Assembly: GCA_964583685.1 (NCBI GenBank)
Contig: CAZOVJ010000002.1
Location: 45,055 to 109,054 of the forward strand
Direction of reading: 5' to 3'
From: an uncultured Gammaproteobacteria bacterium
Lineage (GTDB): Bacteria; Patescibacteriota; Microgenomatia; UBA8517
Length of the DNA stretch: 64,000 nt
Made by a program: the position numbers and the translations under genes. This document shows positions 6,813-58,576 of the stretch, piece by piece; the stretch's first letter is position 1, and each line of letters opens with the position of its first letter. Below the pieces are notes generated by a model. It saw only the letters and a list, made by a program, of their open reading frames with translations, did no database searches and was not told the origin of the DNA.

Positions 6813-6883
6813 TGCGGGGTGGTGTAATGGTAGCACACTGCTCTCTGGAAGCAGGAATCGGGGTTCGAATCCCTGCCCCGCAG
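6813..6883 (+). tRNA. tRNA-Gln (anticodon CUG); CCA not encoded
   Basis: Hand-folded cloverleaf: acceptor TGCGGGG/CCCCGCA with a U1-A72 pair, U8, D-stem GTGT/GCAC, anticodon stem CTGCT/AGCAG around loop CTCTGGA, T-loop TTCGAAT. A promoter-like TGGTAAAAT element lies upstream. Confidence 0.8.
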
Positions 6884-6989
6884 CACAGATTCAAGCGGCA
6901 CTATGTGGTCTCAAAAAAAGTCCTTATTTTTATTCTTGAAAAAAATTGATAATAAGCTATAATTCCAGGAAACGAATCAAAAGGCAGAA

Positions 6990-7466
6990 ATGAGAATAAA
7001 AGAATTATTTACTGGGCCTATAAAAACAGAGCACCCGCAAGGTGGCGAATTAAGGATGAATGCGGAGACGCTGGATCAAATGAAGGAGCAAATTGTATCA
7101 TTGTTTGAAGAAAAATTTGGCAGATATCGTCTGGCTCTGATTTTAAGGTATTGGGGTAAGAAACCAATTCGACATGCTGTCGAGGAAGATAGGCCTAGAA
7201 CTTTGCCTTTTGATATTATCGCTGATGTTAGACATAACATTGATACCTCAAAACAAGCACTTGCCCAAGCCCCCTTAACAAAAGGTGAGAAAAGGACAAC
7301 TTTTATTGCTCTTTTTAGCCGATTAGACGAACTGCTCCATGATCACCTGATCGAACAGGGTGAATCAGATGATATCTTCTATGATCTAAGTGAAGTTCAC
7401 GCAGTAATCGAGGATTGTTTGCAAGATTACCAACAAAGACTACATCTCCTTCCAGAGGTTGAGTAA
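6990..7466 (+). CDS. Hypothetical protein (158 aa), higher GC than neighbours
   Basis: ORF; compositionally closer to the 7.9-11.6 kb block. Confidence 0.45.
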   Translation: MRIKELFTGPIKTEHPQGGELRMNAETLDQMKEQIVSLFEEKFGRYRLALILRYWGKKPIRHAVEEDRPRTLPFDIIADVRHNIDTSKQALAQAPLTKGEKRTTFIALFSRLDELLHDHLIEQGESDDIFYDLSEVHAVIEDCLQDYQQRLHLLPEVE

Positions 7467-7512
7467 AATCAGGAAACAACTTCTCTAGCTTGAGATAAAA
7501 CATTAGTCATAA

Positions 7513-7650
7513 GGTTATGGGTTCGGAAGGTTCTAGCCCGGTATGCTCAGCCGAATTGGATACCTTTTTCATACTGTCTCACTTGTACTTTTATGGTAAA
7601 TTAGGAGTTATGGAGTTGTAAGGATAAAACAGGTCTAGGCCAGCTTACTC
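7513..7650 (+). repeat. Island repeat family, first copy: R-module (7513-7552), L-module (7565-7590), degenerate R-module (7626-7650)
   Basis: ggttatgggttcggaaggttctagcccggtatgctcagcc, then tttttcatactgtctcacttg, then caggtctaggccagcttactc. Confidence 0.7.
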
Positions 7651-7881
7651 TTTAATTACTTCGCAGTTATAGTGAATGAAGCTTAGTCTCATCAAACTCA
7701 TTATTTGAATGTTAATTCCAGAATTGGAAGCCTCGGGAGGGAAAATTTAAAGTAATATAAGCTTTTGTGCTTACATTGTCCTTCATTTTCTAAATCCCTC
7801 CCGAGGAGACCCGTGTAAAAGATTATTGATTCGAGTTGCTTATAACTCTTATCAACTTTTAACCTCCTACCCGAGTCTCCC

Positions 7882-9864
7882 CTACTGTTTCTCTTCAACA
7901 ACCTTACCGTCCTTTATTACAATCACCCTGTTAGCCATCTTTGCAAACTGCTCGTCGTGAGTGATAACCACCAAGGCTTTACCTTGCTGTCTGAGATCTT
8001 GAATCAACTTAGCCACCTTCAACATAGCAGCTGAGTCAAGACCAATTGTGGGTTCATCCAACACCAAAGTTGTAACAGCTGTGTTGCAGGACGCTATGGC
8101 CAACATTCTTACATCTGAAGGGTGCAGGTCCAGCGGACAAGTCAAAGGATTCAAACCTGTCCATTCAAGACCCCCCCTAACAAAGGCATCTGTATCCGAT
8201 TCAGACCACCCCAAGATCTTTGGACCAAAGCTAAGTTCTTCTTCAACAATCATGGCAGTTATCTGCAAAGCCGCATGTTGGAAAACGTAGCCCACCTGAC
8301 CCACCGTTTCTACCGTACCTTTAGCTGGTTTTATGGCACCAGCCAGGGTAAGCATGGCAGTTGTTTTGCCTGAGCCGTTGGGTCCCATAATGGCAACAAC
8401 CTCTCCCTCTTTCAAGGTAAGATCAATGCCTTTAAGGATTTCGTTTCCCTCGAGGGCTACATATACACCGTTCATTCGGGCAACAACATCGCCCAAGTCA
8501 CTTTTGGGATACTTCTCCGGCTGGTCTACAAGGTTGCAACGAGATAGCCACTCGTCGCTATTGAAGAAATTGTTTGGACTAAGGTCTGCCGTAAGTTTCC
8601 CCTCCTCTAGAACATAGACTCTATCAGTAAATCTAGCCAACTCTTGCCAAAATGGGTCGGCTATCACTACAGTGCAAGCTTGTTTGGACCGCAAGATACT
8701 GAGCGCTTCCATAAAGTCAACTCTACCCTGAGGATCAAGCTCCTGCATGGGCGAGTCCAGTAAAAGTGTCTTTGCCCCAGAGACCAAAGCTCCAGCCAAC
8801 ACCAGTCGTACTTGTTCACCGCCGGATAGCTTCGTTGTCTCACGATCCCACAACTCACCAATCCCCATAGTATCTAGAGCTTCTTTGGCTTCTTTCTCAT
8901 CTTTAGCTAAAAAAGAAATCTCTTGTCCCACTGTAAGACCGTATATTGAAGCAAAAGGATCTGGTGCAACATAGCGGGCAAAGCTGCATAAGGCAGACAA
9001 CGGTATCTCGTGGGCAAGCTTACCCGAAACCAATACCCCGCCTTTAAGCCCTCCCATAATCCAGGGAACGACCCCACCCATCACTCTTAAAAGAGTCGTC
9101 TTTCCCGCCGCATTCTTACCAGCGAGATAGACAAATTCGCCTGACCTAATGGTTAGACTTATGTCTTCAAGAACATCCGGAAGTCCAGGAGAATAACGAG
9201 CAAAGACATTCTTAAGTTTAATGTCTCCTTCCATCTGGCTTTCTTCTGTGTGGTGAGATTGAAAAGCAAGTGTTGCTTGCTGGGAATTTACTATAATCCG
9301 AGGGATGATGGCTACTGCCAAGGGCACAAGATTTTTAATATTGGCCCTAATTGAATCCCATCGTAAACCTCGGATAATTAGTGATTGAGTAAGGGCAACA
9401 AATTCCCGTCTGAGTATTTGTATGCCCCGCAAAATCCCTAAAGCCCATGTTCTTATGGGTTTAATCCAAGCAATCCCCCGATACATCTCTGGCGCCGGTG
9501 TTGAAAACAACCAGGCGAACGAGATCAACATCACCCCAGCAAGTCTTGAGCCGGTAACCAAACCGCGTTCTATTCCCACTGAATTGATTGTAAAGACAAA
9601 CCAGTGAATCCCACCGTACTCAGGGGGTGAAAGTATGGCGTTGTAAAGAAACACCATCCCGCCTGAGACTGGCGCAGCCAGAGCCAATTTCCAGTTCCTG
9701 TTGCTATTAGCAAGAAACAAAAGCAACCCTACTACTAGAAGGGAAATGGCTCCTGTTACGTTATTTATAAAGATAAACAACAGGCTCACTGTGAACACTA
9801 TGGCGAATCTCAATTCTGGTGGGAGAACACCTAAACCGAAACCTCTCTTTCTATTTGAGAACAT
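7882..9864 (-). CDS. ECF transporter, fused T component (EcfT/CbiQ-like) plus duplicated ATPase domains (EcfA-EcfA')
   Basis: N-terminal multi-TM region followed by two Walker A motifs (GKNAAGKTT and GPNGSGKTT) with LSGG signatures. GC is about 50 % or higher. Confidence 0.75.
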   Translation of the reverse strand: MFSNRKRGFGLGVLPPELRFAIVFTVSLLFIFINNVTGAISLLVVGLLLFLANSNRNWKLALAAPVSGGMVFLYNAILSPPEYGGIHWFVFTINSVGIERGLVTGSRLAGVMLISFAWLFSTPAPEMYRGIAWIKPIRTWALGILRGIQILRREFVALTQSLIIRGLRWDSIRANIKNLVPLAVAIIPRIIVNSQQATLAFQSHHTEESQMEGDIKLKNVFARYSPGLPDVLEDISLTIRSGEFVYLAGKNAAGKTTLLRVMGGVVPWIMGGLKGGVLVSGKLAHEIPLSALCSFARYVAPDPFASIYGLTVGQEISFLAKDEKEAKEALDTMGIGELWDRETTKLSGGEQVRLVLAGALVSGAKTLLLDSPMQELDPQGRVDFMEALSILRSKQACTVVIADPFWQELARFTDRVYVLEEGKLTADLSPNNFFNSDEWLSRCNLVDQPEKYPKSDLGDVVARMNGVYVALEGNEILKGIDLTLKEGEVVAIMGPNGSGKTTAMLTLAGAIKPAKGTVETVGQVGYVFQHAALQITAMIVEEELSFGPKILGWSESDTDAFVRGGLEWTGLNPLTCPLDLHPSDVRMLAIASCNTAVTTLVLDEPTIGLDSAAMLKVAKLIQDLRQQGKALVVITHDEQFAKMANRVIVIKDGKVVEEKQ

Positions 9865-9936
9865 TTTCCTCTCCCTTCCCTAAGGGAAATAGAGGAGACG
9901 GGTAGTGGTACTATCCGTCTCCCAGATCCGCATATC

Positions 9937-10698
9937 TCACTTGGCTATTCCGGCATCTCGTAATCGTTGGGTGTACATTGGTAGTAGGAATAGACCCAAG
10001 ATGGCAGAGACACTGTCTCCCATAAACCACCCTATTCCTGGATCAACCAGTGCCGCTGCAAACGGTTTCCCACCAACGGTTGCACCGATCGCGCCAATCA
10101 ATGCGCTTACCAGGCATATCAAGACGACGATAAGCAGAGCAGGTAGGAAATGTCGCGGGTTAAGCTCTAACCCCCCAAGCAGCAAACGTGCCCCAACTAC
10201 AAGCACTGCCAAGGGAATTAGAAATCCCCAGGGCATTACTAAGTTGAGGGATATGTTCAACAAACCTGCTGCTAAAACCAGGAGGGTCAAAATCATGACC
10301 CGAACGGCTCCGGTCAACACGTCAGATGGTTTCTTTGCCCCCAAAGTTGGATCGATTTTGAAGGCGGTGAACAGGAGAGCGGGCAACGCTGCGTTTGCGA
10401 GGCCGCCGGCAATTGGGTTCATGATAATATCCACGATACCCCAACCGCCGTACGCCAAAATTCCTGCCGCATAGGCTCCCAACCCCGCGGCTAGACAACC
10501 ATACCAAGGCCCCAGCCAGATGCCGGCAACAAGCTGCAAGGCCGCCGGAAGCCAGATAAAACTGGCTCCTTTGACAGTTGGCGATGATCCTACTGTCATC
10601 ATCACCCAGCCGATGGCGGCAATAGCCACGGCCATGCCGATAGTAAACATAAGTCGCAGTGCCGGGTCGCGCCTAACGACATATTCCGAAGTAGTCAT
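9937..10698 (-). CDS. ECF transporter substrate-specific (S) component, Gly/Ala-rich 6-TM protein (substrate unknown; folate-family is a guess from context)
   Basis: Hydrophobic small-residue-rich integral membrane protein directly upstream of the EcfT/A/A' gene; high GC. Confidence 0.5.
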   Translation of the reverse strand: MTTSEYVVRRDPALRLMFTIGMAVAIAAIGWVMMTVGSSPTVKGASFIWLPAALQLVAGIWLGPWYGCLAAGLGAYAAGILAYGGWGIVDIIMNPIAGGLANAALPALLFTAFKIDPTLGAKKPSDVLTGAVRVMILTLLVLAAGLLNISLNLVMPWGFLIPLAVLVVGARLLLGGLELNPRHFLPALLIVVLICLVSALIGAIGATVGGKPFAAALVDPGIGWFMGDSVSAILGLFLLPMYTQRLRDAGIAK

Positions 10699-10869
10699 TG
10701 GATCTTCTCCTTATTTGAACTTAGATCTATCGGACGGTTGGACACAAGTTTGCATAGAGCCTCCTTATTTGAAACAGCAGAGGAAGAAAACAGCCACATA
10801 GAAGTGACTATCTTTTCCCTCCACTGCTTCCAGTTCTGAAATCACTATTTAAATTTAATTGTTAATGTG

Positions 10870-11610
10870 CTAATTACCTTTTTGCATATTTCTTAATTCA
10901 GGAAGCAAAGAAATACTTTCAAATAGACGTGGATCCAGACGTTCCCAGTAAATCCCCTTCGGCTTTTGCTGGGTTTCTGAAACACGAATGAGGCGGCTAG
11001 GGGTAATAATAATGTCACAGAGAGTATCAAAAGGTTCTACTTGAAGTTCGTTCTCTGTCACTTGACAATCATGAACAAAAGCCACCACGGGTGTTTCCTC
11101 GCCAACCATACCTATTTCCCTCATCATTGCCCACTCAATATCGAAAAAGCCATGGCCCTTGCCATACCTCACTCCATTGATGCTTATAACAGATGCGCCA
11201 GTTATCAAAAAGTCAATTTCCCCTAACTTCTGAATGTCGGCAAGGGTTAATCTCTCCCCGAAACGCTCCATGCCATCCAATGAAGAAGCGTAGTTTTCTT
11301 GCCCTTGAGGCACCATTCCTCTCTCAAGCAAAATCATTCCACGACGAATACCATAAGTCGGCACAATCGCTTGTTTTGAATCTCGAATACTCTGGCTTCG
11401 TATCCCTTCTAAACAATTATCGGGTGTTATCAGTATCCGCTTTGATTCTCTATAAAGATCGAGATCCAATAAATGAGTCAGTGCCTGGTCACTCCCTTCA
11501 AAATCCGGGATAAATTCGGCAAAATTAAGATGATACCTACTGTCTGGCCTGGCAACCAGCGATAGCTGCTCCCAGACCCGCTCTCTTATCGTATCCCTTT
11601 CAGTTCTCAT
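10870..11610 (-). CDS. 5-formyltetrahydrofolate cyclo-ligase family protein
   Basis: GVRYGKGHGFFD matches the MTHFS G-G-G-YD motif. Confidence 0.6.
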   Translation of the reverse strand: MRTERDTIRERVWEQLSLVARPDSRYHLNFAEFIPDFEGSDQALTHLLDLDLYRESKRILITPDNCLEGIRSQSIRDSKQAIVPTYGIRRGMILLERGMVPQGQENYASSLDGMERFGERLTLADIQKLGEIDFLITGASVISINGVRYGKGHGFFDIEWAMMREIGMVGEETPVVAFVHDCQVTENELQVEPFDTLCDIIITPSRLIRVSETQQKPKGIYWERLDPRLFESISLLPELRNMQKGN

Positions 11611-12559: not shown

Positions 12560-13036
12560 ATGAGAAGAACAGGAGTCAGAGCAGTAGCGGTATTAACAAA
12601 AGGTGACAGAATACTTTTAATTCATAGAACTCGAGATAGTAAGGAATTTTGGGTTTTGCCAGGAGGCGGAGTAGAAAAGGATGAGAAAATTGAAGAAGCA
12701 GTTAGCCGTGAAGTTGAAGAAGAGACAAGCATCAAGTGTAAAATTGTTAAATTGCTTTATACACACGTTTATTCTGACCTTGGTCACAAACAATATTATT
12801 ACCTGTGTAAATACGTTTCAGGAACCCCCAACCTGGGGAAATTCAATGAATTCTATACAATGAAGGAAGAAAATCAGACTTACGCACCAGTTTGGGTAAA
12901 CATTGGAAACTTGCCAAAAATATTACTTTATCCTCTGGAAATTCGGGACTGGATTATTCAAGATTACAGAACAAACTTCGAGCACCCGCCTAAATCCGCG
13001 ACGTTAAAATCCACAAATCTCCGTCAAGAAACATGA
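12560..13036 (+). CDS. NUDIX hydrolase (paralog A)
   Basis: Nudix box GGGVEKDEKIEEAVSREVEEETSI; about 70 % identical to the 26461-26937 product. Confidence 0.8.
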   Translation: MRRTGVRAVAVLTKGDRILLIHRTRDSKEFWVLPGGGVEKDEKIEEAVSREVEEETSIKCKIVKLLYTHVYSDLGHKQYYYLCKYVSGTPNLGKFNEFYTMKEENQTYAPVWVNIGNLPKILLYPLEIRDWIIQDYRTNFEHPPKSATLKSTNLRQET

Positions 13037-21055: not shown

Positions 21056-21976
21056 ATGGTTGAAAGAAAGCGTTTCGGTACGATAGAATCTTCCCCAAAA
21101 AGCAGAGGTTCAATCGATCTCGAACTTGGTGAAAGAATTAAGATCCCGTTTACTGGGGCAGAAATCATTTATGCAACTACTATCTCCGGAGATAAGGTGG
21201 TAGTTAAAAAACCACTAAACAACGATCGGGCTAGACATGAATGGGAAGGTCTTAATACAGTAGAATCGACAGGTATTTCTATCCCAAAACCTGTTGCGCT
21301 AATAAGCTATTCAGAGGACCAACTGGCTATTGTATCTAGTTATGTTGAAGGCGATAAATTGTATGATAAACCAAACCCTGATGTAAAAGCAGAAGTTGGA
21401 AGGCAAATTAAAAAAATGCACCAAAGTGCACAGATTGTCGGTGAAGATTGGCTATCTAGTGGTCGAAGCTCATTTCTTTACTATGATAGATATATTTATA
21501 GGTGGTCTAGGGGAAATATCGAAGAGCTGAAAGCAGACGGTAGGACTGCTTCAATATTAGGAGAACTTACCGATGCTGCGGATCAATTCTGTACGCACTC
21601 AGAACCAACATTCAACCACAACGATTTACATGATGGGCAAGTTATCGTAGATGGAAAAGGAAAACCAACAATCATAGATTTTGGAAATTGGACAGAAGAA
21701 ACTTGGATGAACGATATCGGTTATCACTTGTTTCACCTTGTCAGAACTGACAGAGTAGGTGCTGATGACTTTACAAACTTTTTAAACGGATACATGGAAG
21801 GCAAAAAAATGACTGATAAAGAAAAATCAAATTTGGCTTTTTACTTGCTTTTTATATCATCAAGAGCACTAAATTATTTTTACAGAAGACATAGCTCATA
21901 CTTGCCTGTTGCACAAGAGACTCACGAAAAAGTGTTGGCTCATCTTGAAAATGAATCAATCTGGAAAGATTATTAG
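21056..21976 (+). CDS. APH/ChoK-family small-molecule kinase (aminoglycoside-phosphotransferase-like)
   Basis: Catalytic loop HNDLHDGQVIVD and IDFGNW, the Brenner and DFG-like motifs of the APH family. Confidence 0.65.
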   Translation: MVERKRFGTIESSPKSRGSIDLELGERIKIPFTGAEIIYATTISGDKVVVKKPLNNDRARHEWEGLNTVESTGISIPKPVALISYSEDQLAIVSSYVEGDKLYDKPNPDVKAEVGRQIKKMHQSAQIVGEDWLSSGRSSFLYYDRYIYRWSRGNIEELKADGRTASILGELTDAADQFCTHSEPTFNHNDLHDGQVIVDGKGKPTIIDFGNWTEETWMNDIGYHLFHLVRTDRVGADDFTNFLNGYMEGKKMTDKEKSNLAFYLLFISSRALNYFYRRHSSYLPVAQETHEKVLAHLENESIWKDY

Positions 21977-22620
21977 CCCTTTTTTTCTAGAAGCTTAAAA
22001 TGAGAGTAATCGTTGATGTAATTTACTTTCCAGGATTTCCTTTGACTGCTGTAAATCAGGAGAGAGATACCTGTGTAGTTTATTGTTAGTGTTCTAATAA
22101 CTCTTGCCATCATCTCATCCGAATAATTATTCCCTAATATAACCATACTTATAAAACATCTGATAAACACGTCATGCGATACGACCAAAATTCGTTTTCC
22201 TTTATATTTTTTCCTTAAGAAACTTGAGAGTTTATCCGCTCTGCCTAGGACTTCTCTCACTGATTCCTCCTTATTTTTAAACTTCCAATCAAGATTTCTG
22301 TAGTTTGCGTAATATTCTTTAACATATTCTCTTGAAATCTTACTGTTTCTATCTGCTCCATACATTTGAGGTAATTGCATTCTTTCGTGTATGTAATCTA
22401 GAGTCTCTGTTTTAATTTTCAGATTACCAGAGAGAATTTCTGTAGTTTTTCTTGACCTTTCCCATTTACTTGAAAAGATTTTGTCTAATCGGGAGAATCT
22501 GGATCTTTGACTTAAAACCTCTGCTTGTTTTTCACCAAACTTGCCCAGTTTGGAGTCAGGAGTCTGCCACTGGTTTCTGGGGGTTTCGCTACTTGCGTGT
22601 CTAACTAAGAACAATAACAT
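21973..22620 (-). CDS. Histidine phosphatase superfamily protein (PGAM-like), last gene of the RiPP operon
   Basis: LFLVRHASSE (RHG-type) and ILVVSHDVFIR (SHG-type) motifs. Confidence 0.55.
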   Translation of the reverse strand: MLLFLVRHASSETPRNQWQTPDSKLGKFGEKQAEVLSQRSRFSRLDKIFSSKWERSRKTTEILSGNLKIKTETLDYIHERMQLPQMYGADRNSKISREYVKEYYANYRNLDWKFKNKEESVREVLGRADKLSSFLRKKYKGKRILVVSHDVFIRCFISMVILGNNYSDEMMARVIRTLTINYTGISLLIYSSQRKSWKVNYINDYSHFKLLEKKG

Positions 22621-22627
22621 CTTATCC

Positions 22628-23398
22628 TTATTGTACTGTTCCTAGTGCTATAACTCCAATGACGCTTTCATCAATCTTGTCAAAATCGAGAAGTCTGTTT
22701 AAGCCATCGTCAATAAAACCACCTATTGAACAAGCGCCCAACCCCAGCTCGGCAGCTAGTAAGCTAACATTTTGTGCATAGTGACCGTACTCTGTATAAA
22801 TATGCCTCAAACCTCTATCACCATACTTCTCCTCAGTTCTGTCAAATATCGACGATATTACTAGTAAAACAGAAGATTTTCGAATCCAAGGTTGGTTAAA
22901 CTGTTTCATTGTTTCTTTGAAAAAGGGTTTATCATATATCTTTTCCAAAGAATGGCTTTTAACATGATAGTGGTATATTGCTGGCAGCAAATCCTCAACT
23001 TTGAATACAAAAGGATAAATTTCTAATGGGTATCTTGCTCCAGCAGAAGGGTAAAATCGTTTGTCTTTTGTCTTTTTAAACGATAACCTCTTTAACCCGC
23101 ATGAGTAAAACATTAGATTGGAAAAAACAGCGGATTTAATGTTCTTTTTTGTAAATTCTCTTATTGACTCTCTTTTTGTTAATGCATTACTCAAGCTCCA
23201 TTTCGGTTTGGTGGGTGTAGGTAGTAAAACCTGCTCCATCCTGGGATAAGCTTTATAATAAACTTTCTTCCAATGCTCCGGCCAAGTGGAATAAGGTGTT
23301 GTCTTGTATTTACTGAAATCGTCAATCTTTATATTATTATTGAACTCCCTTGATTTAGAGATTTTCAGCGTTTTAATTATTTTTCCTAACTTGTTCAT
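22628..23398 (-). CDS. SagB-type FMN-dependent dehydrogenase (azoline oxidase; nitroreductase fold)
   Basis: RESIREF and PSAGARYPLEIY match the SagB-type dehydrogenase signature. Confidence 0.8.
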   Translation of the reverse strand: MNKLGKIIKTLKISKSREFNNNIKIDDFSKYKTTPYSTWPEHWKKVYYKAYPRMEQVLLPTPTKPKWSLSNALTKRESIREFTKKNIKSAVFSNLMFYSCGLKRLSFKKTKDKRFYPSAGARYPLEIYPFVFKVEDLLPAIYHYHVKSHSLEKIYDKPFFKETMKQFNQPWIRKSSVLLVISSIFDRTEEKYGDRGLRHIYTEYGHYAQNVSLLAAELGLGACSIGGFIDDGLNRLLDFDKIDESVIGVIALGTVQ

Positions 23399-23399
23399 G

Positions 23400-24710
23400 T
23401 TATAAAAATGGGTGAGGATAAGTGTTTAATTTTCCGGTATTTTTGTAGCCCAAACTACTCGGAACGTTGTGTAAACGCTCACCTCCCCGTAGTGGGTATT
23501 TTTCATTAAGATACACAGGTTGCATTCTCGGTATCACAACCTTCACTACTTTAAAAGGAATATCCATAAAGTATTTTGAGGTAATATCTTTGTAATATAT
23601 TTTATAACCCCTATCTTCTAGAGATTTTCTTAATATACGCAGCTGGTTTCGTGCAGAAAGATCCTTGTTTGCGGACTCTATTTTTACAAGATCTAAGTTG
23701 TTAATAAAAAAGTCTAACTTTGAGATCGATTTAGATGGGTACCAAAAAAGCCCTCGATTTTTAATTGTAGAATTTTTAATCAACTCTGTTTTTGAAATAT
23801 CTGATGGATTTTGTATATATGATTCGCGTATCCATGTTCTTGTATGAAATGCTTCATTGATCGAACCGATAATTGCACTTTCTATATCTAAGTGAGATTT
23901 TAAACCTACAGAAACAGCTTTACTAAATCCGGTTTCATCGACCACCACAGATGCAACAGCTGGAATGGGCAAATCTGTTCTTATATCTAAAGAAAATATT
24001 TTCAATCTATATCTCTGAGATATTTCTAATAGTTTCTTAACTTTTTCATTATTAGAAGACAAAAGATCATATCTTTTTGGTTTTAGTTTATTCAGATAAT
24101 AAATCATGAATGCATCTCTCTCAATAACTTCATAAATTCCACCCAATATTGCAGAATCTAGTTTAAAATGACCGGCAGCCCCAGTACTAATTGATGGATA
24201 GATGGCTGGCTCTTTTTTGACGGGACGGTAGGATAGGTAAATTACCTGGCAAGGGACGAGACAGCTCTCGTTAGTGTTCAAAGATTTCATTTCTGTCCAC
24301 CTAAACAATGAATTGTCGTCAATTCGAAAATTCTTATATTCATTTTGATGAAGTTGTTTGTCTGAAAAAAATATGAACTTCTCTGGATTAATGGCATTTT
24401 TATTGATTTTCGAATAGCTACCTACATAACTAACCTCTTTATTAAAAAAGGCGAAATTATCATATCTCTCTATCGCTTCAGCTAAAGCTTTTAGTACTGC
24501 CTCATATTGGGAGAAAAATGACACTCCTGAAGCCTTTGAGTGAAAGTGTGCTCCATCTTGCTTTAAATGTTTATCATTGATTGACGCTGAATAATACCAG
24601 AACTTAGGCTCATCATAATGTTGTCGAACTCTTTCAAAAGATTCGACTAATTTAATTTCTTGCAAGATGGGGCTGAGGTTTTTGATCAAACTGATAAAAT
24701 CTTCATTCAT
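23400..24710 (-). CDS. YcaO-domain cyclodehydratase
   Basis: GVSFFSQYEAVLKALAEAIERY fits the canonical YcaO ATP-binding motif. Confidence 0.85.
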   Translation of the reverse strand: MNEDFISLIKNLSPILQEIKLVESFERVRQHYDEPKFWYYSASINDKHLKQDGAHFHSKASGVSFFSQYEAVLKALAEAIERYDNFAFFNKEVSYVGSYSKINKNAINPEKFIFFSDKQLHQNEYKNFRIDDNSLFRWTEMKSLNTNESCLVPCQVIYLSYRPVKKEPAIYPSISTGAAGHFKLDSAILGGIYEVIERDAFMIYYLNKLKPKRYDLLSSNNEKVKKLLEISQRYRLKIFSLDIRTDLPIPAVASVVVDETGFSKAVSVGLKSHLDIESAIIGSINEAFHTRTWIRESYIQNPSDISKTELIKNSTIKNRGLFWYPSKSISKLDFFINNLDLVKIESANKDLSARNQLRILRKSLEDRGYKIYYKDITSKYFMDIPFKVVKVVIPRMQPVYLNEKYPLRGGERLHNVPSSLGYKNTGKLNTYPHPFL

Positions 24711-24772
24711 AAAAAATACACCTAACCATAGCAGGTTTTGTTAGTCAAGACTATTAATAAATAACTGATTAG

Positions 24773-25009
24773 TTATTTACCTAGTCTATTTTCGGCACAA
24801 TCACAGCCACAGCTCGCACAGCTTGAACAGCTGCCACAACTACCACCACCACAAGCACAGCTTGAACAGTCTCCGCAACTCTGATCACAATCAGAGGCAC
24901 GTACTACACCTTTGGTAGCTTCTGCTTTAATATTTGTGTCGTTTTGCTGGGGCATGGCATCAGCTAAATCTCTCGTTTCTCTTATAACTTCACTCGTCAT
25001 TTTTCTCAC
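24773..25009 (-). CDS. TOMM/LAP-type RiPP precursor peptide (78 aa) with a Cys/Ser/Gly-rich core
   Basis: Core SCGDCSSCACGGGSCGSCSSCASCGCDCAENRLGK; a strong RBS GGAGGGGGTGAG lies 7 nt upstream; it sits immediately upstream of YcaO. Confidence 0.7.
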   Translation of the reverse strand: MRKMTSEVIRETRDLADAMPQQNDTNIKAEATKGVVRASDCDQSCGDCSSCACGGGSCGSCSSCASCGCDCAENRLGK

Positions 25010-25122
25010 CCCCTCCCATAGTTTGATGCGATATTATAACAGCAGTCAAAATATGTCAATTATACTTGAATGTAATATATTCAGCTCACCCATGACTTTT
25101 AAAGACGTTTTTTGAGTACTGT

Positions 25123-25905
25123 TCATTTTTTTACAGTTATCATAAATCTTTTAGAATTAGTTTTTATTCCCTTTCTGGTTTTGTTTTTTTCGATAAATCG
25201 TTCTAGAATCCCAAAATCTTTCTTGCTTTTTCCAAAACCTGGGATTATTGGAGTGTGTTTAAGCAGAAAAATTAAATCTTCTGAAGTTTTGTAATAGACA
25301 GTCGAATTGTATTCTTTCGCTTTGATATTTTTGAACCCAGCTTTTTTCAGACCTTTTATATATTTATTCTTAAGTGTTCCGTCTTTTAATCCATACGCCT
25401 GACCTCTTTTAAAAGCCCGCTTAATGTTAATTTTGTCACCTTCGCTAACTTGTTGTGTGAAAAAGTGACCACCTTTCACTAAGACTCGATAAACCTCTAG
25501 TGGATAAAAGTCACAATGTCTGCTGGTTACAATATCAAAGGAGTTATCAGGGAATTTAAGCTTTACTGAACTCATTCGAAGAAAGCGTACATTTTTATAC
25601 CCTGCTTTGTTAAGGTTTCTTTTTGCAGTGTTAACCATACTGACTGAATGATCTATGCCAGTTATAAACTTCACTTTTTCAGCTAACCTAAGAATTTGTT
25701 CTCCTCCTCCAGTTCCTATATCTAAAAGTTTGTCTGTTGGTTTTGCGATTTTCGCTACTTCCTCAATAAAATTCCATTTTTTACCTTCCTCGATCTTTTT
25801 CAATCGACTGAAGTCCCAACCAATTCGTTTACCAACTCTATTGTAAAATTTCTTGTAATTAACCTGACTCATGTTTTGATTATATCGCAAAGTGGTATCA
25901 TACAT
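25123..25905 (-). CDS. Class I SAM-dependent methyltransferase, first gene of the RiPP operon; the start may be the Met at 25872
   Basis: SAM motif LLDIGTGGGEQ. Confidence 0.75.
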   Translation of the reverse strand: MYDTTLRYNQNMSQVNYKKFYNRVGKRIGWDFSRLKKIEEGKKWNFIEEVAKIAKPTDKLLDIGTGGGEQILRLAEKVKFITGIDHSVSMVNTAKRNLNKAGYKNVRFLRMSSVKLKFPDNSFDIVTSRHCDFYPLEVYRVLVKGGHFFTQQVSEGDKINIKRAFKRGQAYGLKDGTLKNKYIKGLKKAGFKNIKAKEYNSTVYYKTSEDLIFLLKHTPIIPGFGKSKKDFGILERFIEKNKTRKGIKTNSKRFMITVKK

Positions 25906-25907
25906 TT

Positions 25908-26459
25908 ATGAAAGTCTATCTAATCAGGCATGCTATGAGTGTGGATGCAAAAAGAGGAATATCACAAAGAGATAACTCGCCATTGGCTAAAGATGCAATT
26001 AAAGATAAATCTATTAGTTATTATAAAGAATTAGAATTTGATAAAGTATTATGTTCTCCACTGCTTCGAGCGACACAAACAGCAGAAAAACTTTTTGGGA
26101 ATTTTGAAATTGTAGATTACATATATGAATATAAAAGACCTACAGAACTTGATGGAGTTCCAAGAAAAGAAGCTAGAAAATTCTGGGAAAAACATTGGCC
26201 GAAATCGAGTACGGATCCCAACTGGAGCCATGACGGCAGCGAAAGCTTCAATACAATGGTCACAAGGGCTGATAAGTTTTATAAGTTCTTAAAGGGCTTG
26301 AAGTACAAAAGAGTTGCCGTAGTTGGCCATTCTATATTTTTTAGACATTTATTGTCTATACATGCACTTGGTAAGAAAAATTACACAATTGACAAGTATT
26401 ACAAACTTTCCATGTTTATTAAACCCTATCCTCTGCACTACTTAAAGATGGAGCTATAA
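25908..26459 (+). CDS. Histidine phosphatase superfamily protein (PGAM-like), divergent from the RiPP operon
   Basis: YLIRHAMS, SPLLRATQTA and VAVVGHS motifs. Confidence 0.7.
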   Translation: MKVYLIRHAMSVDAKRGISQRDNSPLAKDAIKDKSISYYKELEFDKVLCSPLLRATQTAEKLFGNFEIVDYIYEYKRPTELDGVPRKEARKFWEKHWPKSSTDPNWSHDGSESFNTMVTRADKFYKFLKGLKYKRVAVVGHSIFFRHLLSIHALGKKNYTIDKYYKLSMFIKPYPLHYLKMEL

Positions 26460-26460
26460 G

Positions 26461-26937
26461 ATGACAAGAGTAGCAATAAGAGCTGTCGCAGTTTTAGTAA
26501 AAGACGATAAAGTATTGCTTGTACACAGAACTCGTAATGGAAAAGAATTTTGGGTTTTTCCGGGTGGAGGAGTTGAGGAAGGCGAAAATGTAGAAGAAGC
26601 GGTCGTCCGTGAAGTGGAAGAAGAGGCAAGTACTAAATGTAAAATAGTTAAACTTCTTTATACCCATATCTACTCGAATTTAGGACATAAACAATTCTAT
26701 TACCTATGCGATTACATATCAGGAAACCCAAAATTAGGTGATTTTAATGAATTAGAGACAATGAAAAATGAAGATCAAACTTATGAACCGGGTTGGATAA
26801 AAATTGAAAGTCTATCCAAGAAATTAGTCTATCCTTTGGAAATTCGAGACTGGCTGATTGAAGATTATAGGACGGATTTCAAAAACACACCGAGAGCTGC
26901 AACCTTAAAATCCACCGAGCTTCGTCAAGAGTTATAA
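26461..26937 (+). CDS. NUDIX hydrolase (paralog B of 12560-13036)
   Basis: Nudix box GGGVEEGENVEEAVVREVEEEAST; 158 aa, the same length as paralog A. Confidence 0.8.
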   Translation: MTRVAIRAVAVLVKDDKVLLVHRTRNGKEFWVFPGGGVEEGENVEEAVVREVEEEASTKCKIVKLLYTHIYSNLGHKQFYYLCDYISGNPKLGDFNELETMKNEDQTYEPGWIKIESLSKKLVYPLEIRDWLIEDYRTDFKNTPRAATLKSTELRQEL

Positions 26938-28669: not shown

Positions 28670-29239
28670 ATGAGAAACTCTCCTCCAATAGTTATTCTGT
28701 TTAATGGTCCTCCTGGAGTTGGCAAATCCACTATAGCGAAAGAATTAGCAAAAAAGTCAAGATACGGTGCTTTCACTGATGTTGATAGTTTGAGACACCA
28801 TATATTTGGTGGAGTCGTTAGTGCAAGAAACCAGAAAAAAGACACTAATGAGTTTGAAAGACAAAGACTACTTGCAGCCGATAATGTATCGTGCATGGCA
28901 AATAACTATGTTAGATATGGATTTAACTATTTTATTTCTGACTTGGTTAAGATACCTTCAGTCATTAAGAGGTATAGAAATCATTTTAAAGATATTAATT
29001 TCTATCATGTAATTTTGAGGGCCGACATAGAAGAATTAGAAAAACGTGATGCTTCAAGAACTGGTCTGAAATTGCACGGAAAAGAAGTGATAGAAAAAAT
29101 AAATAAAGAAATGCGTGAGCTCGACTATAGTGACTGTGTAACCATCGACACAACAAACAAAAGTGTTCAAGCAACGGTCAACCTCGTTCTCGAAAAGTTA
29201 GGACTTAATTTTAAAGACGGACAGTTTTACTCTAAGTAA
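28670..29239 (+). CDS. P-loop NTPase / small-molecule kinase-like protein
   Basis: Walker A GPPGVGKSTIAKELAKKS; size and layout similar to CPT/adenylate-kinase-like kinases. Confidence 0.55.
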   Translation: MRNSPPIVILFNGPPGVGKSTIAKELAKKSRYGAFTDVDSLRHHIFGGVVSARNQKKDTNEFERQRLLAADNVSCMANNYVRYGFNYFISDLVKIPSVIKRYRNHFKDINFYHVILRADIEELEKRDASRTGLKLHGKEVIEKINKEMRELDYSDCVTIDTTNKSVQATVNLVLEKLGLNFKDGQFYSK

Positions 29240-29884: not shown

Positions 29885-30616
29885 ATGAATATCTCACAGC
29901 AAGTCAATACCATTGGTAACGCGTTTATGGACAGCCTCAAAAAAATCTTGGGTAAAAAACTGTATGGAGTATATATTTACGGAGCCGCAGCTTTCCCAGA
30001 TAAATTACCTACGGGAGATATCGACTTCCATGTCATTTTAACAAGAAGTCTTACAGAAAACGAAAAACTGCAGCTGGAAAAGCTTCACGAGTCTATTGCC
30101 CAAAGATTTCCGCCGCTTGGAGGAGAGCTCGATGGTTATTACATCCTCTTAAAAGATACTGTTAAGAAGGTCCCACCCAAAAGTCAAATGTGGAAACGAG
30201 CAACTGATACTTCATGGGCCCTACATCGTGAGCATATTTTAGCGGGCAGGTGTATTGTTTTTTACGGACCTGATCCAAAAGAGATATACCAGCCTGCCGA
30301 GTGGTCAGAGATTGAAACTGCACTATATGGCGAGTTGGACTTTGTTGAAAAAAATCTTCAAAATTACCCGGATTATTGCATTCTTAACCTCTGTCGCTTG
30401 ATTTATAGCTTTGAGACAAAAGACGTTGTTATTTCAAAAGACAAAGCATCTGAGTGGGCCATTAAAGCCCTACCTCAATGGAAAGAACTTATTAAACTCG
30501 CAAGAAAGTCATACGAACACCGGGCATCGCAGAAAGACAAAGAGTTCATGAGTTCTGAGGTTGGAAAATTTCTTGAATTTGCGAAAAAGCGCGTTCAATC
30601 TCAAACGAAAGAATAA
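29885..30616 (+). CDS. ANT/AadA-like nucleotidyltransferase (nucleotidyltransferase plus DUF4111-like C-terminal domain)
   Basis: GVYIYGAAAFPDKLPTGDIDFHVIL parallels AadA LYGSAVDGGLKPHSDIDLLV; length 243 aa. Confidence 0.55.
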   Translation: MNISQQVNTIGNAFMDSLKKILGKKLYGVYIYGAAAFPDKLPTGDIDFHVILTRSLTENEKLQLEKLHESIAQRFPPLGGELDGYYILLKDTVKKVPPKSQMWKRATDTSWALHREHILAGRCIVFYGPDPKEIYQPAEWSEIETALYGELDFVEKNLQNYPDYCILNLCRLIYSFETKDVVISKDKASEWAIKALPQWKELIKLARKSYEHRASQKDKEFMSSEVGKFLEFAKKRVQSQTKE

Positions 30617-30678: not shown

Positions 30679-31428
30679 TTAGGCCTCAATTCTAGAAAAA
30701 AGATAGCTTCCAATTAATAACAAAATAATCCCAACAATACTTAACACCGAGACATCTGTTGTTAACCCAAAATGAGTGGTGCCTACCAAAACCTGCCTAA
30801 GGCCATCGACTCCGTAAGTTAATGGGTTGATATAGGAAACAACTTGGATTAGTCTGGGAACATTATTTAGCGGGAAAATGGCTCCCGATAAGAAAAAGGT
30901 AGGCATAACCAAAAAATTCATAATTAGCTGGAAGCCATGAAAATCTTTCATTAAGGAAGCAATTGCTGTTCCTAAAGCGCTGAATAGAAGGGCAACTAAA
31001 AACATCAAGCAAACTGCGAGAGGAATTATGGTAAGACTTTTAGGCTTAAATCCCACTAATAAAGTCAAGAGGAGGACTATAAGGCCCTGAAAAGTGGCAA
31101 CTGTTGCCCCGCCGAGTACTCTACCTAGAACAACCTCCAATCTTGAGACAGGGGCGACTAAGGTTGCTTTTAGAAAACCAAATTGTCTGTCCCAAATAAG
31201 TTCTATTCCCGAAAAGACAGCCATAAATAAGATTGCCTGACTTATAACACCAGGGGTTAGGAAGTTAATATAATTGCCACCACCGGCTTTTTCAAACACT
31301 GGCCCCAAACCAAAACCCAAAGCCACCAAAAACAAAAGCGGTTGGCCGATAGAGCCGATAATTCGAGATTTTGACCGCCAATATCTCTTAATCTGCCTCA
31401 ACCACATAATGTAAATAATATTAATCAT
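30679..31428 (-). CDS. ABC-2 type transporter permease
   Basis: 6-TM ABC-2 architecture; translationally coupled to the upstream ATPase. Confidence 0.7.
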   Translation of the reverse strand: MINIIYIMWLRQIKRYWRSKSRIIGSIGQPLLFLVALGFGLGPVFEKAGGGNYINFLTPGVISQAILFMAVFSGIELIWDRQFGFLKATLVAPVSRLEVVLGRVLGGATVATFQGLIVLLLTLLVGFKPKSLTIIPLAVCLMFLVALLFSALGTAIASLMKDFHGFQLIMNFLVMPTFFLSGAIFPLNNVPRLIQVVSYINPLTYGVDGLRQVLVGTTHFGLTTDVSVLSIVGIILLLIGSYLFSRIEA

Positions 31429-32243
31429 CTTTGTCTTCTCCTAAATCTATTCATTCTTAGTCTCGCTCTATCTTGTATACCAGCATTCTCTTCTCTAATA
31501 GTTTTACCGGTTAAAGCCAAGTAGGCGGATTCTAAAGTTTTAGTTTTGGTTTCTTTTTTGAGAGATTCCGTTCTTCCTTGGGCAATAATCTTGCCGTGAT
31601 CGATAATAGCGATAGTTTTGGCCATTTTTTCTGCCTCTTCCATATAATGGGTAGTAAAGAAAATAGTTGTTTGATATTTTTTGTTCAACTGTTTTATATG
31701 GTCCCAAATTTTATGTCTGGTTTGGGGGTCAAGTCCCAAAGTTGGCTCGTCTAGAAAAAGTAGTTTTGGATGATGGAGTAAGCCTCTGGCAATCTCGAGC
31801 CTTCTTCTCATCCCCCCAGAATAAGTTTTAACTAAATTATTCTTCCGGTTCCACAAATCAACAATTTCCAAGAGATCCTGGATTCTTTTTTTTCTTGTTT
31901 TTTTAGGAATTTTATACAGGACGCCATGGAATTCCATATTTTCATAAGCAGTCAACTCATCGTCTAAACTAGAATCTTGGAAAACAATTCCGAAGGACTT
32001 TCTCACCTCGTCTTGCTGGCTTAACGGGTCAAAACCGTTGACTAGCATCTGTCCTTCTGTTGACCTCAAAAGGGTAGTCAACATTCTGATAGTAGTTGTT
32101 TTACCAGCGCCATTGGGTCCAAGAAAGGCAAATATATCTCCTTTTTTTACTTCAAAAGAAATATTGTCAACGGCAACAAGACTATTGAACCTCCTGGTTA
32201 AGCTGTTAACCTTAATGATTGGCTGTTGTTTTTTATCAGACAT
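31425..32243 (-). CDS. ABC transporter ATP-binding protein. The start is taken at MSDKKQQPII (32243); the ORF track extends it to 32333.
   Basis: Walker A GPNGAGKTT and LSGG-type signature YSGGMRRR. Confidence 0.75.
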   Translation of the reverse strand: MSDKKQQPIIKVNSLTRRFNSLVAVDNISFEVKKGDIFAFLGPNGAGKTTTIRMLTTLLRSTEGQMLVNGFDPLSQQDEVRKSFGIVFQDSSLDDELTAYENMEFHGVLYKIPKKTRKKRIQDLLEIVDLWNRKNNLVKTYSGGMRRRLEIARGLLHHPKLLFLDEPTLGLDPQTRHKIWDHIKQLNKKYQTTIFFTTHYMEEAEKMAKTIAIIDHGKIIAQGRTESLKKETKTKTLESAYLALTGKTIREENAGIQDRARLRMNRFRRRQR

Positions 32244-32364
32244 ATTTTCTATAGAGAACGTTATAATTATAGAAGCAGGTTCTAGCTTTGTCCACAGTTC
32301 GCAGCAAAGAAATTTGGCCTTGAAAATTATCATCTAACTAGGCTGTTCGAACCCTCAGGATGTT

Positions 32365-33494: not shown

Positions 33495-33932
33495 ATGAAT
33501 AAAAAAATTGCTGTTTTAATATTTATTGACCATGAAGGAAACTTACTCCTTCAGGAAAGGGGTAATTATTCAAAGGCGGGAGAAAAGCATGGCTATTTTG
33601 GGGGAAACATTGAAAATGGAGAAAAACCCAAAGACGCATTAATAAGGGAGTTGAAAGAAGAATTGGGCTATATTCCTGATAATATTAAGTTCTGGAAAAA
33701 AGTTGATTTTTTGTGCACAGCAGAAGGAAAGTATAATAATTTCGGAGTTACTATTTATATATTTATTAGCCCTTTAACCAAAAAATTGGAGGATATTAAA
33801 GTATATGAGGGTGAAGACAAGATAATGACTACTCTTGACGAAGAGTTAAAAAGTCATAATATCATTGGTGGATACGAAATTGTTCTCAAGGAAATAAAAA
33901 ACCATTTTGCTGAGGTGTTGAAGTTGCTTTAA
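33495..33932 (+). CDS. NUDIX hydrolase (third copy, divergent)
   Basis: Nudix box GGNIENGEKPKDALIRELKEELG. Confidence 0.75.
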   Translation: MNKKIAVLIFIDHEGNLLLQERGNYSKAGEKHGYFGGNIENGEKPKDALIRELKEELGYIPDNIKFWKKVDFLCTAEGKYNNFGVTIYIFISPLTKKLEDIKVYEGEDKIMTTLDEELKSHNIIGGYEIVLKEIKNHFAEVLKLL

Positions 33933-58160: not shown

Positions 58161-58190
58161 AAAAGCTCGCGGAAAAGCGAGCTTTTTTCT
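58161..58190. terminator. Hairpin plus U-run terminator just 3' of rnpB (functional on the minus strand)
   Basis: aagctcgc-ggaaaa-gcgagctt, with T/A runs on both sides. Confidence 0.6.
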
Positions 58191-58576
58191 GGCTCTGGAG
58201 GATAGTAAGCCAGATTCTGTTTTAGTCCCGCCTGACGGCAGGTAGGTAATCATCTGTCTATGCCCTCACCTTGGGACGTTCCCCTCGCTGAGCGAGGAGA
58301 GTCGGGAAGGCATCCTAATGACGTCCCGGTCGGAGGTTGCAGCAGGGAGGATTGCCTCTTTTCACCCTCTTCCCTAATACCGTTAGGTATTAGGATGAGT
58401 CGTAGTCTCTGTGGCTCTAACTAGCGGTTACCCGTGTCCGATGTAAATCGGACCACCCTGCCTTCTGCTGTCTGGACTTTCCTCCCCGCCTAATTTTTGC
58501 CTTTCGCCTTTAAGTACTATTCGTACACGGCTCTAGGCGCAAATTTTGGCGGAGCGATTACCCCTCCTCCAGAGTA
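58191..58576 (-). ncRNA. rnpB: RNase P RNA (bacterial type A)
   Basis: The reverse complement contains GGGGAGGAAAGTCCAGAC (P4 5' strand), CAGGGTGG, GGTAACCGC, AGGGTGAAAAG and ACAGAATCTGGCTTAC (P4 3' strand). P1 pairs CTCTGGAGG with CCTCCAGAG. The region is GC-rich and the ORF track covers it only with short overlapping ORFs on both strands. Confidence 0.8.

Follow-up and report, generated by a model that had tools for sequence, protein, structure and literature searches.

Which genes make up a peptide-modifying cluster that turned up in a metagenomic contig, and how might it operate when the usual leader-binding protein is nowhere in sight? The locus lies in a window of 64,000 nucleotides, i.e. 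the whole stretch of DNA analysed here (assembly GCA_964583685.1, contig CAZOVJ010000002.1, positions 45,055 to 109,054 of the forward strand). A sequence-only reading of this window had proposed a thiazole/oxazole-modified microcin (TOMM) or linear azol(in)e-containing peptide (LAP) cluster, one of the types of ribosomally made peptide that are modified after translation (RiPPs), at 21973-26459. All the open reading frames (ORFs) on which it relied were recovered where it had placed them, and the class it assigned is upheld by YcaO and SagB scores above the family cutoffs and by a precursor under purifying selection. Its limits were redrawn. As judged from the gene content of related loci, the real cluster extends from 21056 to 25059. 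It thus loses the genes upstream of the precursor and gains a convergent, APH-fold kinase gene that had been overlooked and is tightly linked to the cluster in evolution. We consider it likely that this is a LAP cluster of the candidate phyla radiation (CPR) type, Microgenomates-like, that carries a dedicated kinase, with or without a phosphatase, as an accessory module and has no partner protein nearby. The predicted features of the cluster, in window positions, are as follows.

21056-21976, plus strand: APH-fold kinase, 306 amino acids, convergent on the operon; its 3' end overlaps that of the phosphatase gene by 4 nt.
21973-22620, minus strand: HisPhos-A, a PGAM-type histidine phosphatase, 215 amino acids, closing the operon, 7 nt past the SagB stop.
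22628-23398, minus strand: SagB/ThcOx-type flavin mononucleotide (FMN) dehydrogenase (B protein), 256 amino acids, starting 1 nt past the YcaO stop.
23400-24710, minus strand: YcaO cyclodehydratase (D protein), 436 amino acids, a single domain without fused E1 or RiPP recognition element (RRE).
24773-25000, minus strand: precursor peptide, 75 amino acids; the mechanical ORF reaches a GTG at 25009 (78 amino acids).
25031-25059, minus strand: promoter-like site, TTGACA-17 nt-TAATAT, past the methyltransferase stop (25123) and ahead of the precursor.

The family assignments of the cluster enzymes are far beyond chance, to judge from their profile scores. YcaO reached 196.8 bits against PF02624 and 249.1 bits against TIGR03604, the azole-forming SagD family (cutoff of 219.25), and the dehydrogenase reached 129.1 bits against TIGR03605 (cutoff of 78.4). 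Both exceed the trusted hidden Markov model (HMM) cutoffs on which the sequence-only reading had made its call depend, so the core of that call stands. Residues E78, E81, R82, E194, E197 and R198 of YcaO are invariant across 104 sequences, and the C-terminal P432, H433, P434, F435 and L436 are kept in at least 90% of them. The catalytic glutamates align with those of LynD and MusD. ATP-binding glutamates and a Pro-rich C-terminus are marks of azoline-forming YcaOs (PMC8442711). The nearest folds of the YcaO structure model are LynD and McbD, with the methanogen protein MJ1094 and the M. kandleri YcaO also among the closest. The dehydrogenase does carry the PSAGxxYPLEIY signature noticed at first reading, as YPSAGARYPLEIY. 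Its catalytic Lys-Tyr pair (K191-Y192) is invariant among 71 sequences, as are R114, P117, S118, G120, R122, Y123, P124, E126 and Y128. It matches ThcOx/CyaGox, BmdC and McbC, and the nearest folds of its model are ThcOx, BmdC and McbC.

The precursor has its own signals. The TTGACA-17-TAATAT site is the best promoter-like site of the region, with 10/12 matches and a perfect -35 hexamer; a perfect TATAAT can also be read at 25038-25033 on the minus strand. The Shine-Dalgarno sequence GGGAGGGGG at 25017-25009 is followed, after 8 nt, by the ATG at 25000, a better start than the GTG at 25009, which overlaps the Shine-Dalgarno itself. An independent gene caller also gives 75 residues. Hence, the small ORF proposed as precursor is a real coding gene, as its promoter, ribosome-binding site and selection indicate, and only its length of 78 residues needed correction. 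Comparison with three orthologs gave a ratio of nonsynonymous to synonymous differences per site (pN/pS) of 0.27-0.38, at pS of 0.58-0.83 where synonymous sites are almost saturated; by this measure the peptide is under purifying selection. The leader of about 37 residues carries the motif L-A-D-A-M-P-Q-Q, and the 38-residue core (SDCDQSCGDCSSCACGGGSCGSCSSCASCGCDC...), of Asp/Ser/Gly/Cys type, has 11 Cys and 8 Ser. The peptide matched no NCBIfam or Pfam family at E ≤ 0.01. A small Cys-rich ORF adjoins YcaO in 33 collected loci, with hypervariable cores. Downstream of YcaO, intergenic gaps of 1 nt and 7 nt suggest translational coupling. A 17-bp AU-rich hairpin across the precursor stop (24748-24787, minus strand; -18.5 kcal/mol for an 86-nt stretch, z of -2.47) was considered as an attenuator and dropped, as L003 and other orthologs do not conserve it.

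The extent of the cluster follows from its relatives. We retrieved 249 YcaO relatives at E ≤ 1e-5, mostly from metagenome-assembled genomes (MAGs) of CPR/Patescibacteria, including Microgenomates, and a few from DPANN archaea. The neighbourhood survey covered 80 genome loci, in 77 of which YcaO was located; further loci were then added, giving about 90 altogether. SagB adjoins YcaO on the same strand in 72/77 loci, and an M16 peptidase gene is present after SagB in 22-23 loci (the 64-kb window has no M16 peptidase homolog). The window's own clade comprises 10 loci (L003-6, L008, L016 and L083-86), whose YcaOs are 48-80% identical to ours. The only genes common to the window and these 10 loci are those of the precursor, YcaO, SagB, HisPhos-A and the APH kinase, and in most of them the kinase gene reaches up to, or into, the phosphatase gene at its 3' end. 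None of the other window genes between 13 and 37 kb is kept beside the block in the same-clade loci, and the flanks vary from locus to locus. The kinase at 21056-21976 is by this comparison a member of the cluster and the most faithful accessory gene of the cluster type. As to the island in which the first reading had placed the cluster, the G+C content is lower there, at 0.34-0.35 vs about 0.39, and the flanks, as just said, are not conserved.

How is the leader recognised? The first reading had seen no E1-like, Ocin-ThiF or RRE protein, and our searches agree with it. None was found in the window by tblastn or by an unfiltered profile search with the ThiF and PqqD families of related loci. 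YcaO, at 436 residues, is indeed unfused, and neither its structure model nor that of SagB holds an extra domain that could be a hidden RRE. The SagB model (predicted local distance difference test, pLDDT, of 89.3) has about 60 N-terminal residues, in short helices, before the nitroreductase fold, a predicted stretch too short for an RRE. A ThiF/E1-like gene accompanies YcaO in 5/77 loci (three Acidobacteriota, one Stahlbacteria and one Aenigmatarchaeota, a DPANN lineage), and none lies within 5-8 kb in about 65 CPR loci. The precursors do share a leader motif. The family form [D/E]-A-x-[P/E]-x occurs in 27/33 precursors vs 4% of 3861 background small ORFs, and the strict form D[AST][KR][EDA]F in 12/33 vs a single one of the 3861. 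It varies by clade: D-A-K-E-F in loci of the M16 type and [D/E]-A-x-P-x in those of the kinase type (DAMPQ in the window). No protein other than YcaO and SagB is conserved universally, so the motif is presumably read by one of these two. In the searchable literature we came across neither the leader motif nor a lack of partner as a trait of the family.

The cluster might instead be a conventional LAP system whose leader-binding partner, either an F protein resembling Ocin-ThiF or a C protein of E1-like type, is encoded elsewhere and acts in trans. A partner acting in trans has been reported for heterocycloanthracin, and the window covers only part of the genome. Furthermore, the YcaO of DPANN locus L041 (39% identity) and four YcaOs from non-CPR bacteria have an adjacent ThiF gene, and azoline-forming YcaOs require an E1-like or ThiF-like partner 'in most cases' (PMC7136475). 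We nevertheless find this explanation unlikely, given the absence of such a gene from the neighbourhoods of the CPR loci just described and the way in which the block shifts among unrelated contexts as a self-contained unit. Stand-alone enzymes also exist. The methanogen YcaOs MJ1094 and M. kandleri YcaO, among the closest structures to ours, are not known to need a partner. The bottromycin YcaOs are likewise stand-alone exceptions, forming thiazoline without one (PMC7136475, PMC8442711).

We also looked at PqqD genes in six distant loci as the missing RRE. They lie several kb from YcaO and were set aside as probably belonging to separate clusters. In these loci, a PqqD-like RRE, an HPr-kinase-like protein and an NTP_transf_5 nucleotidyltransferase are encoded a few kb from YcaO-SagB (L037, 10880-14880; also L030, L039, L040, L044 and L052). 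They form a different CPR clade, with another leader type and with precursors downstream of SagB. The group could be a second RiPP cluster or could provide an RRE that serves YcaO.

Other unusual candidates for substrates or associated proteins were seen among the relatives. In a more distant YcaO clade, longer Cys-rich candidate substrates of 75-119 residues are encoded on the opposite strand and carry a predicted membrane or signal segment (L074, 960-1319, minus strand; L077, 7497-7724, minus strand; L073, 12844-13122, minus strand). They are immediately beside YcaO in L074 and L077 and about 3.5 kb off in L073; the record titles of the three name two Saccharibacteria and one Nomurabacteria. 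Locus L031 (2833-8672) has two tandem YcaO-SagB pairs and, between them, a 123-residue protein that begins with a hydrophobic segment at its N-terminus and is rich in Cys at its C-terminus. In L004 (5902-7617) and four other loci, a 571-residue secreted Cys-rich protein without Pfam match is encoded shortly upstream of the precursor.

What do the kinase and the phosphatase do beside such enzymes? HisPhos-A scored 82.9 bits against PF00300, the solved structure closest to it is that of a phosphoserine phosphatase of PGAM type (4ij5), and the catalytic RH[A/G], R, E and H are retained in 13/13 orthologs. The kinase scored 56.2 bits against PF01636. Its motifs FNHNDLHDGQ and DF[G/E] are conserved, its catalytic residues are intact in all orthologs, and among NCBIfam models it has only weak matches to Bud32, homoserine kinase and CotS. 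The family counts 39 clusters among 5.8 billion proteins, and HMMER, run exhaustively over 1.84 billion representatives, returned 78 at E ≤ 1e-3, nearly all of about 300 residues. From these searches and the gene neighbourhoods, the kinase belongs to a tiny subfamily that is hardly met outside YcaO-SagB loci. It accompanies YcaO-SagB in five gene arrangements, down to 26-33% kinase identity. For example, in L092 and L093 (kinase identity of about 31-33%) the phosphatase and kinase genes are co-directional, in this order, and convergent on a YcaO-SagB-precursor series, while in L094 and L095 (27-28%) YcaO, SagB and the kinase form one operon without phosphatase. The kinase gene is divergent from the precursor in L007 and follows a downstream precursor in L075. 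In the YcaO tree, the loci with both HisPhos and APH genes group in a single clade. YcaO and the kinase diverge in step, their pairwise identities being closely correlated (r = 0.94 over 105 pairs; 0 of 5000 Mantel permutations), nearly as those of YcaO and SagB do (0.97). The leader subtype [D/E]-A-x-P also co-occurs with the kinase. We found no mention in the searchable literature of this subtype of YcaO cluster, with its kinase and histidine phosphatase.

Two loci show the pair without a complete set of biosynthetic genes. In L087, which has kinase and phosphatase, the last 23 residues of SagB remain and abut the phosphatase. In L088, the last 41 residues of YcaO remain and abut an intact SagB. 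These loci had been taken as evidence of a kinase-phosphatase pair independent of the cluster, a conclusion that was reversed when tblastn and direct reading revealed the remnants of SagB and YcaO; both are decayed clusters left by deletions. That the pair outlives the biosynthetic genes is as expected of immunity or resistance, without being proof of it.

The kinase and phosphatase might still be nothing but persistent neighbours, e.g. a pair for small-molecule salvage or detoxification with no role on the peptide. The region is rich in genes for chloramphenicol-phosphotransferase (CPT)-like kinase, AadA_C-like and NUDIX proteins, the pair persists after loss of YcaO, and in L090 it stands with a NUDIX gene and no YcaO is visible on the 5-kb contig. 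The contig of one further kinase relative (P0287) is just 3.5 kb long and its context is uninformative. We regard this view as quite improbable. It would have to account for an association that holds across five gene orders, including a kinase within the YcaO-SagB operon (L094) and a phosphatase packed against SagB, while the flanking genes are never conserved. It also sits poorly with the near confinement of the subfamily to YcaO-SagB loci, the co-divergence of kinase and YcaO and the matching leader subtype.

We therefore return to a LAP cluster with a dedicated kinase module, which might work as follows. The dedicated promoter would drive the 75-residue precursor and then YcaO, SagB and the PGAM-type phosphatase. 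With ATP, YcaO would cyclodehydrate the 11 core Cys, perhaps along with a part of the 8 Ser, to azolines, which the FMN dehydrogenase would oxidise to azoles. The leader motif (DAMPQ) would most probably be recognised by YcaO and SagB themselves, as a pair, given that there is no partner in the cluster or in the neighbourhoods of its CPR relatives. The APH kinase, usually with the phosphatase, most likely handles a peptide-linked phosphorylation and is inherited with YcaO/SagB. One option is self-protection or resistance by reversible phosphorylation, which fits the survival of the pair after loss of YcaO and precursor; another is transient phosphorylation of core Ser during maturation. Hence, the two proteins may serve in phosphorylation-based immunity or in tailoring, and the leader may be recognised by YcaO/SagB themselves. 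A more specific proposal joins the two, namely a CPR LAP subclass in which a partner-free YcaO/SagB reads the leader motif and a private kinase, usually with a phosphatase, phosphorylates a Ser-rich azole peptide. This we put forward tentatively, as a possibility that is doubtful in its full form.

Several points weigh against this interpretation. Azole formation is itself predicted from homology only. Cryptic E1-like partners that escape sequence detection exist, e.g. AmiB (PMC8442711), and a partner encoded in trans could lie beyond the 64-kb window, which is part of a contig of about 350 kb. By sequence, the kinase matched nothing in the PDB. The mirror-tree correlation would also be expected if the genes merely tracked the species phylogeny. 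In L089 the kinase is frameshifted while YcaO and SagB persist, and L094 has no phosphatase (its contig begins 281 nt upstream of YcaO, leaving the precursor outside the view); together these imply that neither accessory gene is strictly required.

If the phosphorylation is real, it could be a reversible protecting or immunity mark, or a step towards dehydroalanine, and this would be the first phosphorylation-coupled azole peptide pathway. The family itself amounts to a sizeable natural collection of azole-forming YcaO/SagB pairs, which seemingly work without the leader-binding partner of textbook LAP systems, with a conserved leader motif that is simple to test and a minimal three-gene core attractive for engineering. 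The private kinase of one clade, with or without phosphatase, hints at phosphorylation-based immunity or tailoring undescribed for azole peptides. The genomes of CPR bacteria are tiny, and their way of life is believed to be one of attachment to hosts. That an antibiotic-like peptide system is widely conserved among them bears on their competition and interaction with these hosts.

The genes upstream of the precursor, included in the earlier proposal, and a transporter further off had given the locus a resemblance to plantazolicin:

25123-25905, minus strand: S-adenosylmethionine (SAM) methyltransferase, judged a neighbour and not a member.
25908-26459, plus strand: HisPhos-B, a second histidine phosphatase, judged a neighbour and not a member.
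30679-32333, minus strand: ABC-2 permease and ATPase, judged neighbours and not members.

In a plantazolicin-like cluster, the upstream methyltransferase would N-methylate the product, both phosphatases would take part in the pathway and the ABC-2 proteins would export the peptide. The methyltransferase is indeed on the same strand and only 113 nt upstream of the precursor. Unrelated class-I methyltransferases occur near YcaO in a few other loci (e.g. L029), and L089 has methyltransferase, HisPhos and NUDIX genes a few kb from its cluster copy. Yet in 10/10 same-clade loci, even the one with an 80%-identical YcaO, the block has no methyltransferase, HisPhos-B, NUDIX or ABC-2 gene next to it, and in about 80 more distant loci the methyltransferase, HisPhos-B and the ABC-2 transporter are not kept there either. 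The methyltransferase matches generic class-I SAM methyltransferase models only, all below their curated cutoffs, and the precursor's own promoter sits past its stop. The analogy with PznL and plantazolicin thus finds no support. The ABC-2 genes are 5.7 kb from the cluster, past six unrelated genes on the opposite strand. HisPhos-B, with 53.1 bits against PF00300, is not kept beside YcaO-SagB, so that one of the two histidine phosphatases attributed to the cluster (HisPhos-A) is conserved with the block and the other is not. We regard the plantazolicin-like scheme as very unlikely; from the gene neighbourhoods, the methyltransferase and HisPhos-B genes, like the NUDIX and ABC-2 ones, are neighbours and are not supported as members.

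The surroundings of the cluster hold a series of small drug-modifying-like or house-cleaning genes (12560-13036, 26461-26937, 28670-29239, 29885-30616 and 33495-33932). The set includes a chloramphenicol-phosphotransferase-like P-loop kinase, an AadA_C-type nucleotidyltransferase, three NUDIX hydrolases, an alpha/beta hydrolase and the ABC-2 pair. None of these is conserved with the cluster.

The possibility that YcaO performs another backbone chemistry (thioamide or amidine formation) or modifies a protein that is not a RiPP has in its favour a second-best NCBIfam match to the McrA thioamidation YcaO (82.6 bits, far under the cutoff of 365) and is most improbable in view of the passed TIGR03604 cutoff, the lack of a TfuA gene, the coupling of a SagB-type azoline oxidase to YcaO in 72/77 loci, the hypervariable Cys-rich cores adjoining YcaO and the Pro-rich C-terminus.

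LAP clusters of this kind are already known from CPR bacteria, on bioinformatic grounds only. Sharrar et al. 2020 (mBio, PMC7298704) describe a LAP cluster of Microgenomates_ANG_785 with an 84-residue precursor, YcaO, nitroreductase and peptidase, and report another 110 LAP clusters from 93 CPR genomes; in 89 of these clusters a nitroreductase adjoins YcaO. The remark that RiPP clusters of this class are rarely reported from CPR-like genomes is thus out of date. Their clusters resemble ours in the precursor beside YcaO, the adjacent nitroreductase/SagB, the CPR hosts and the lack of a listed E1 partner. Their example has a peptidase after the nitroreductase, whereas the window has HisPhos-A in that position and a convergent APH kinase. 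The leaders and cores differ as well: [D/E]-A-x-P and Asp/Ser/Gly/Cys in the window, D-A-K-E-F and Pro/Cys in theirs.

With the classical systems (McbBCD, SagBCD, Balh/hakacin and plantazolicin) our locus shares the YcaO ATP-binding glutamates and Pro-rich C-terminus, the SagB/McbC-type FMN dehydrogenase with its K-Y pair, and a leader followed by a Cys/Ser-rich core. Unlike them, it has neither a C protein (E1-like with RRE) nor an F protein, and its clade has no immunity pump, no CaaX-type protease and no conserved leader protease. Plantazolicin has a dedicated methyltransferase, whereas no methyltransferase is conserved in this clade. Heterocycloanthracin and sonorensin combine a TIGR03601 precursor with an Ocin-ThiF F protein, neither of which was matched in the window. 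The partner-free YcaOs BotC/BmbD, MJ1094 and that of M. kandleri modify one site and are unpaired with a SagB oxidase, in contrast to the multi-Cys core and dehydrogenase found here. This combination of multi-Cys core and obligatory dehydrogenase points to iterative azole formation.

Kinases of APH or similar small-molecule-kinase fold have precedents in RiPP clusters, namely those of class V lanthipeptides and thioamitides (LxmK, TvaC) and of lasso peptides. As in the LxmK/TvaC-type systems, an enzyme of this fold is here encoded beside a Ser-rich core. Those systems pair the kinase with a HopA1-like lyase, whereas the window kinase is paired with a histidine phosphatase. It is accompanied by no such lyase or cyclase: the conserved block leaves no other gene as a lyase candidate, although no search with a HopA1 profile was made.

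Some minor observations concern the mobility and the hosts of the cluster. In L088 (5573-5943 and 8520-10130) and L089 (5564-5914), the decayed block is flanked by a full-length comM/Mg-chelatase gene on one side and additional Mg_chelatase_C fragments on the other. This has the look of an insertion at the 3' end of comM that brought about a partial duplication, a hint of mobility. Many MAG records with the cluster (L005, L007-L011 and others) are titled 'uncultured Gammaproteobacteria/Pseudomonadales bacterium', and L003 'Clostridia bacterium'. As the closest relatives are Patescibacteria, such titles look like placeholder or wrong taxonomy. Elsewhere in the window, a segment at 7000-11000 has a G+C content of 0.44-0.48, vs 0.35-0.40 in the rest, and includes a 660-residue ORF (7882-9864). 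Two RNA genes were also identified:

6813-6884, plus strand: tRNA-Gln(CTG).
58190-58573, minus strand: bacterial class-A RNase P RNA, 113.9 bits.

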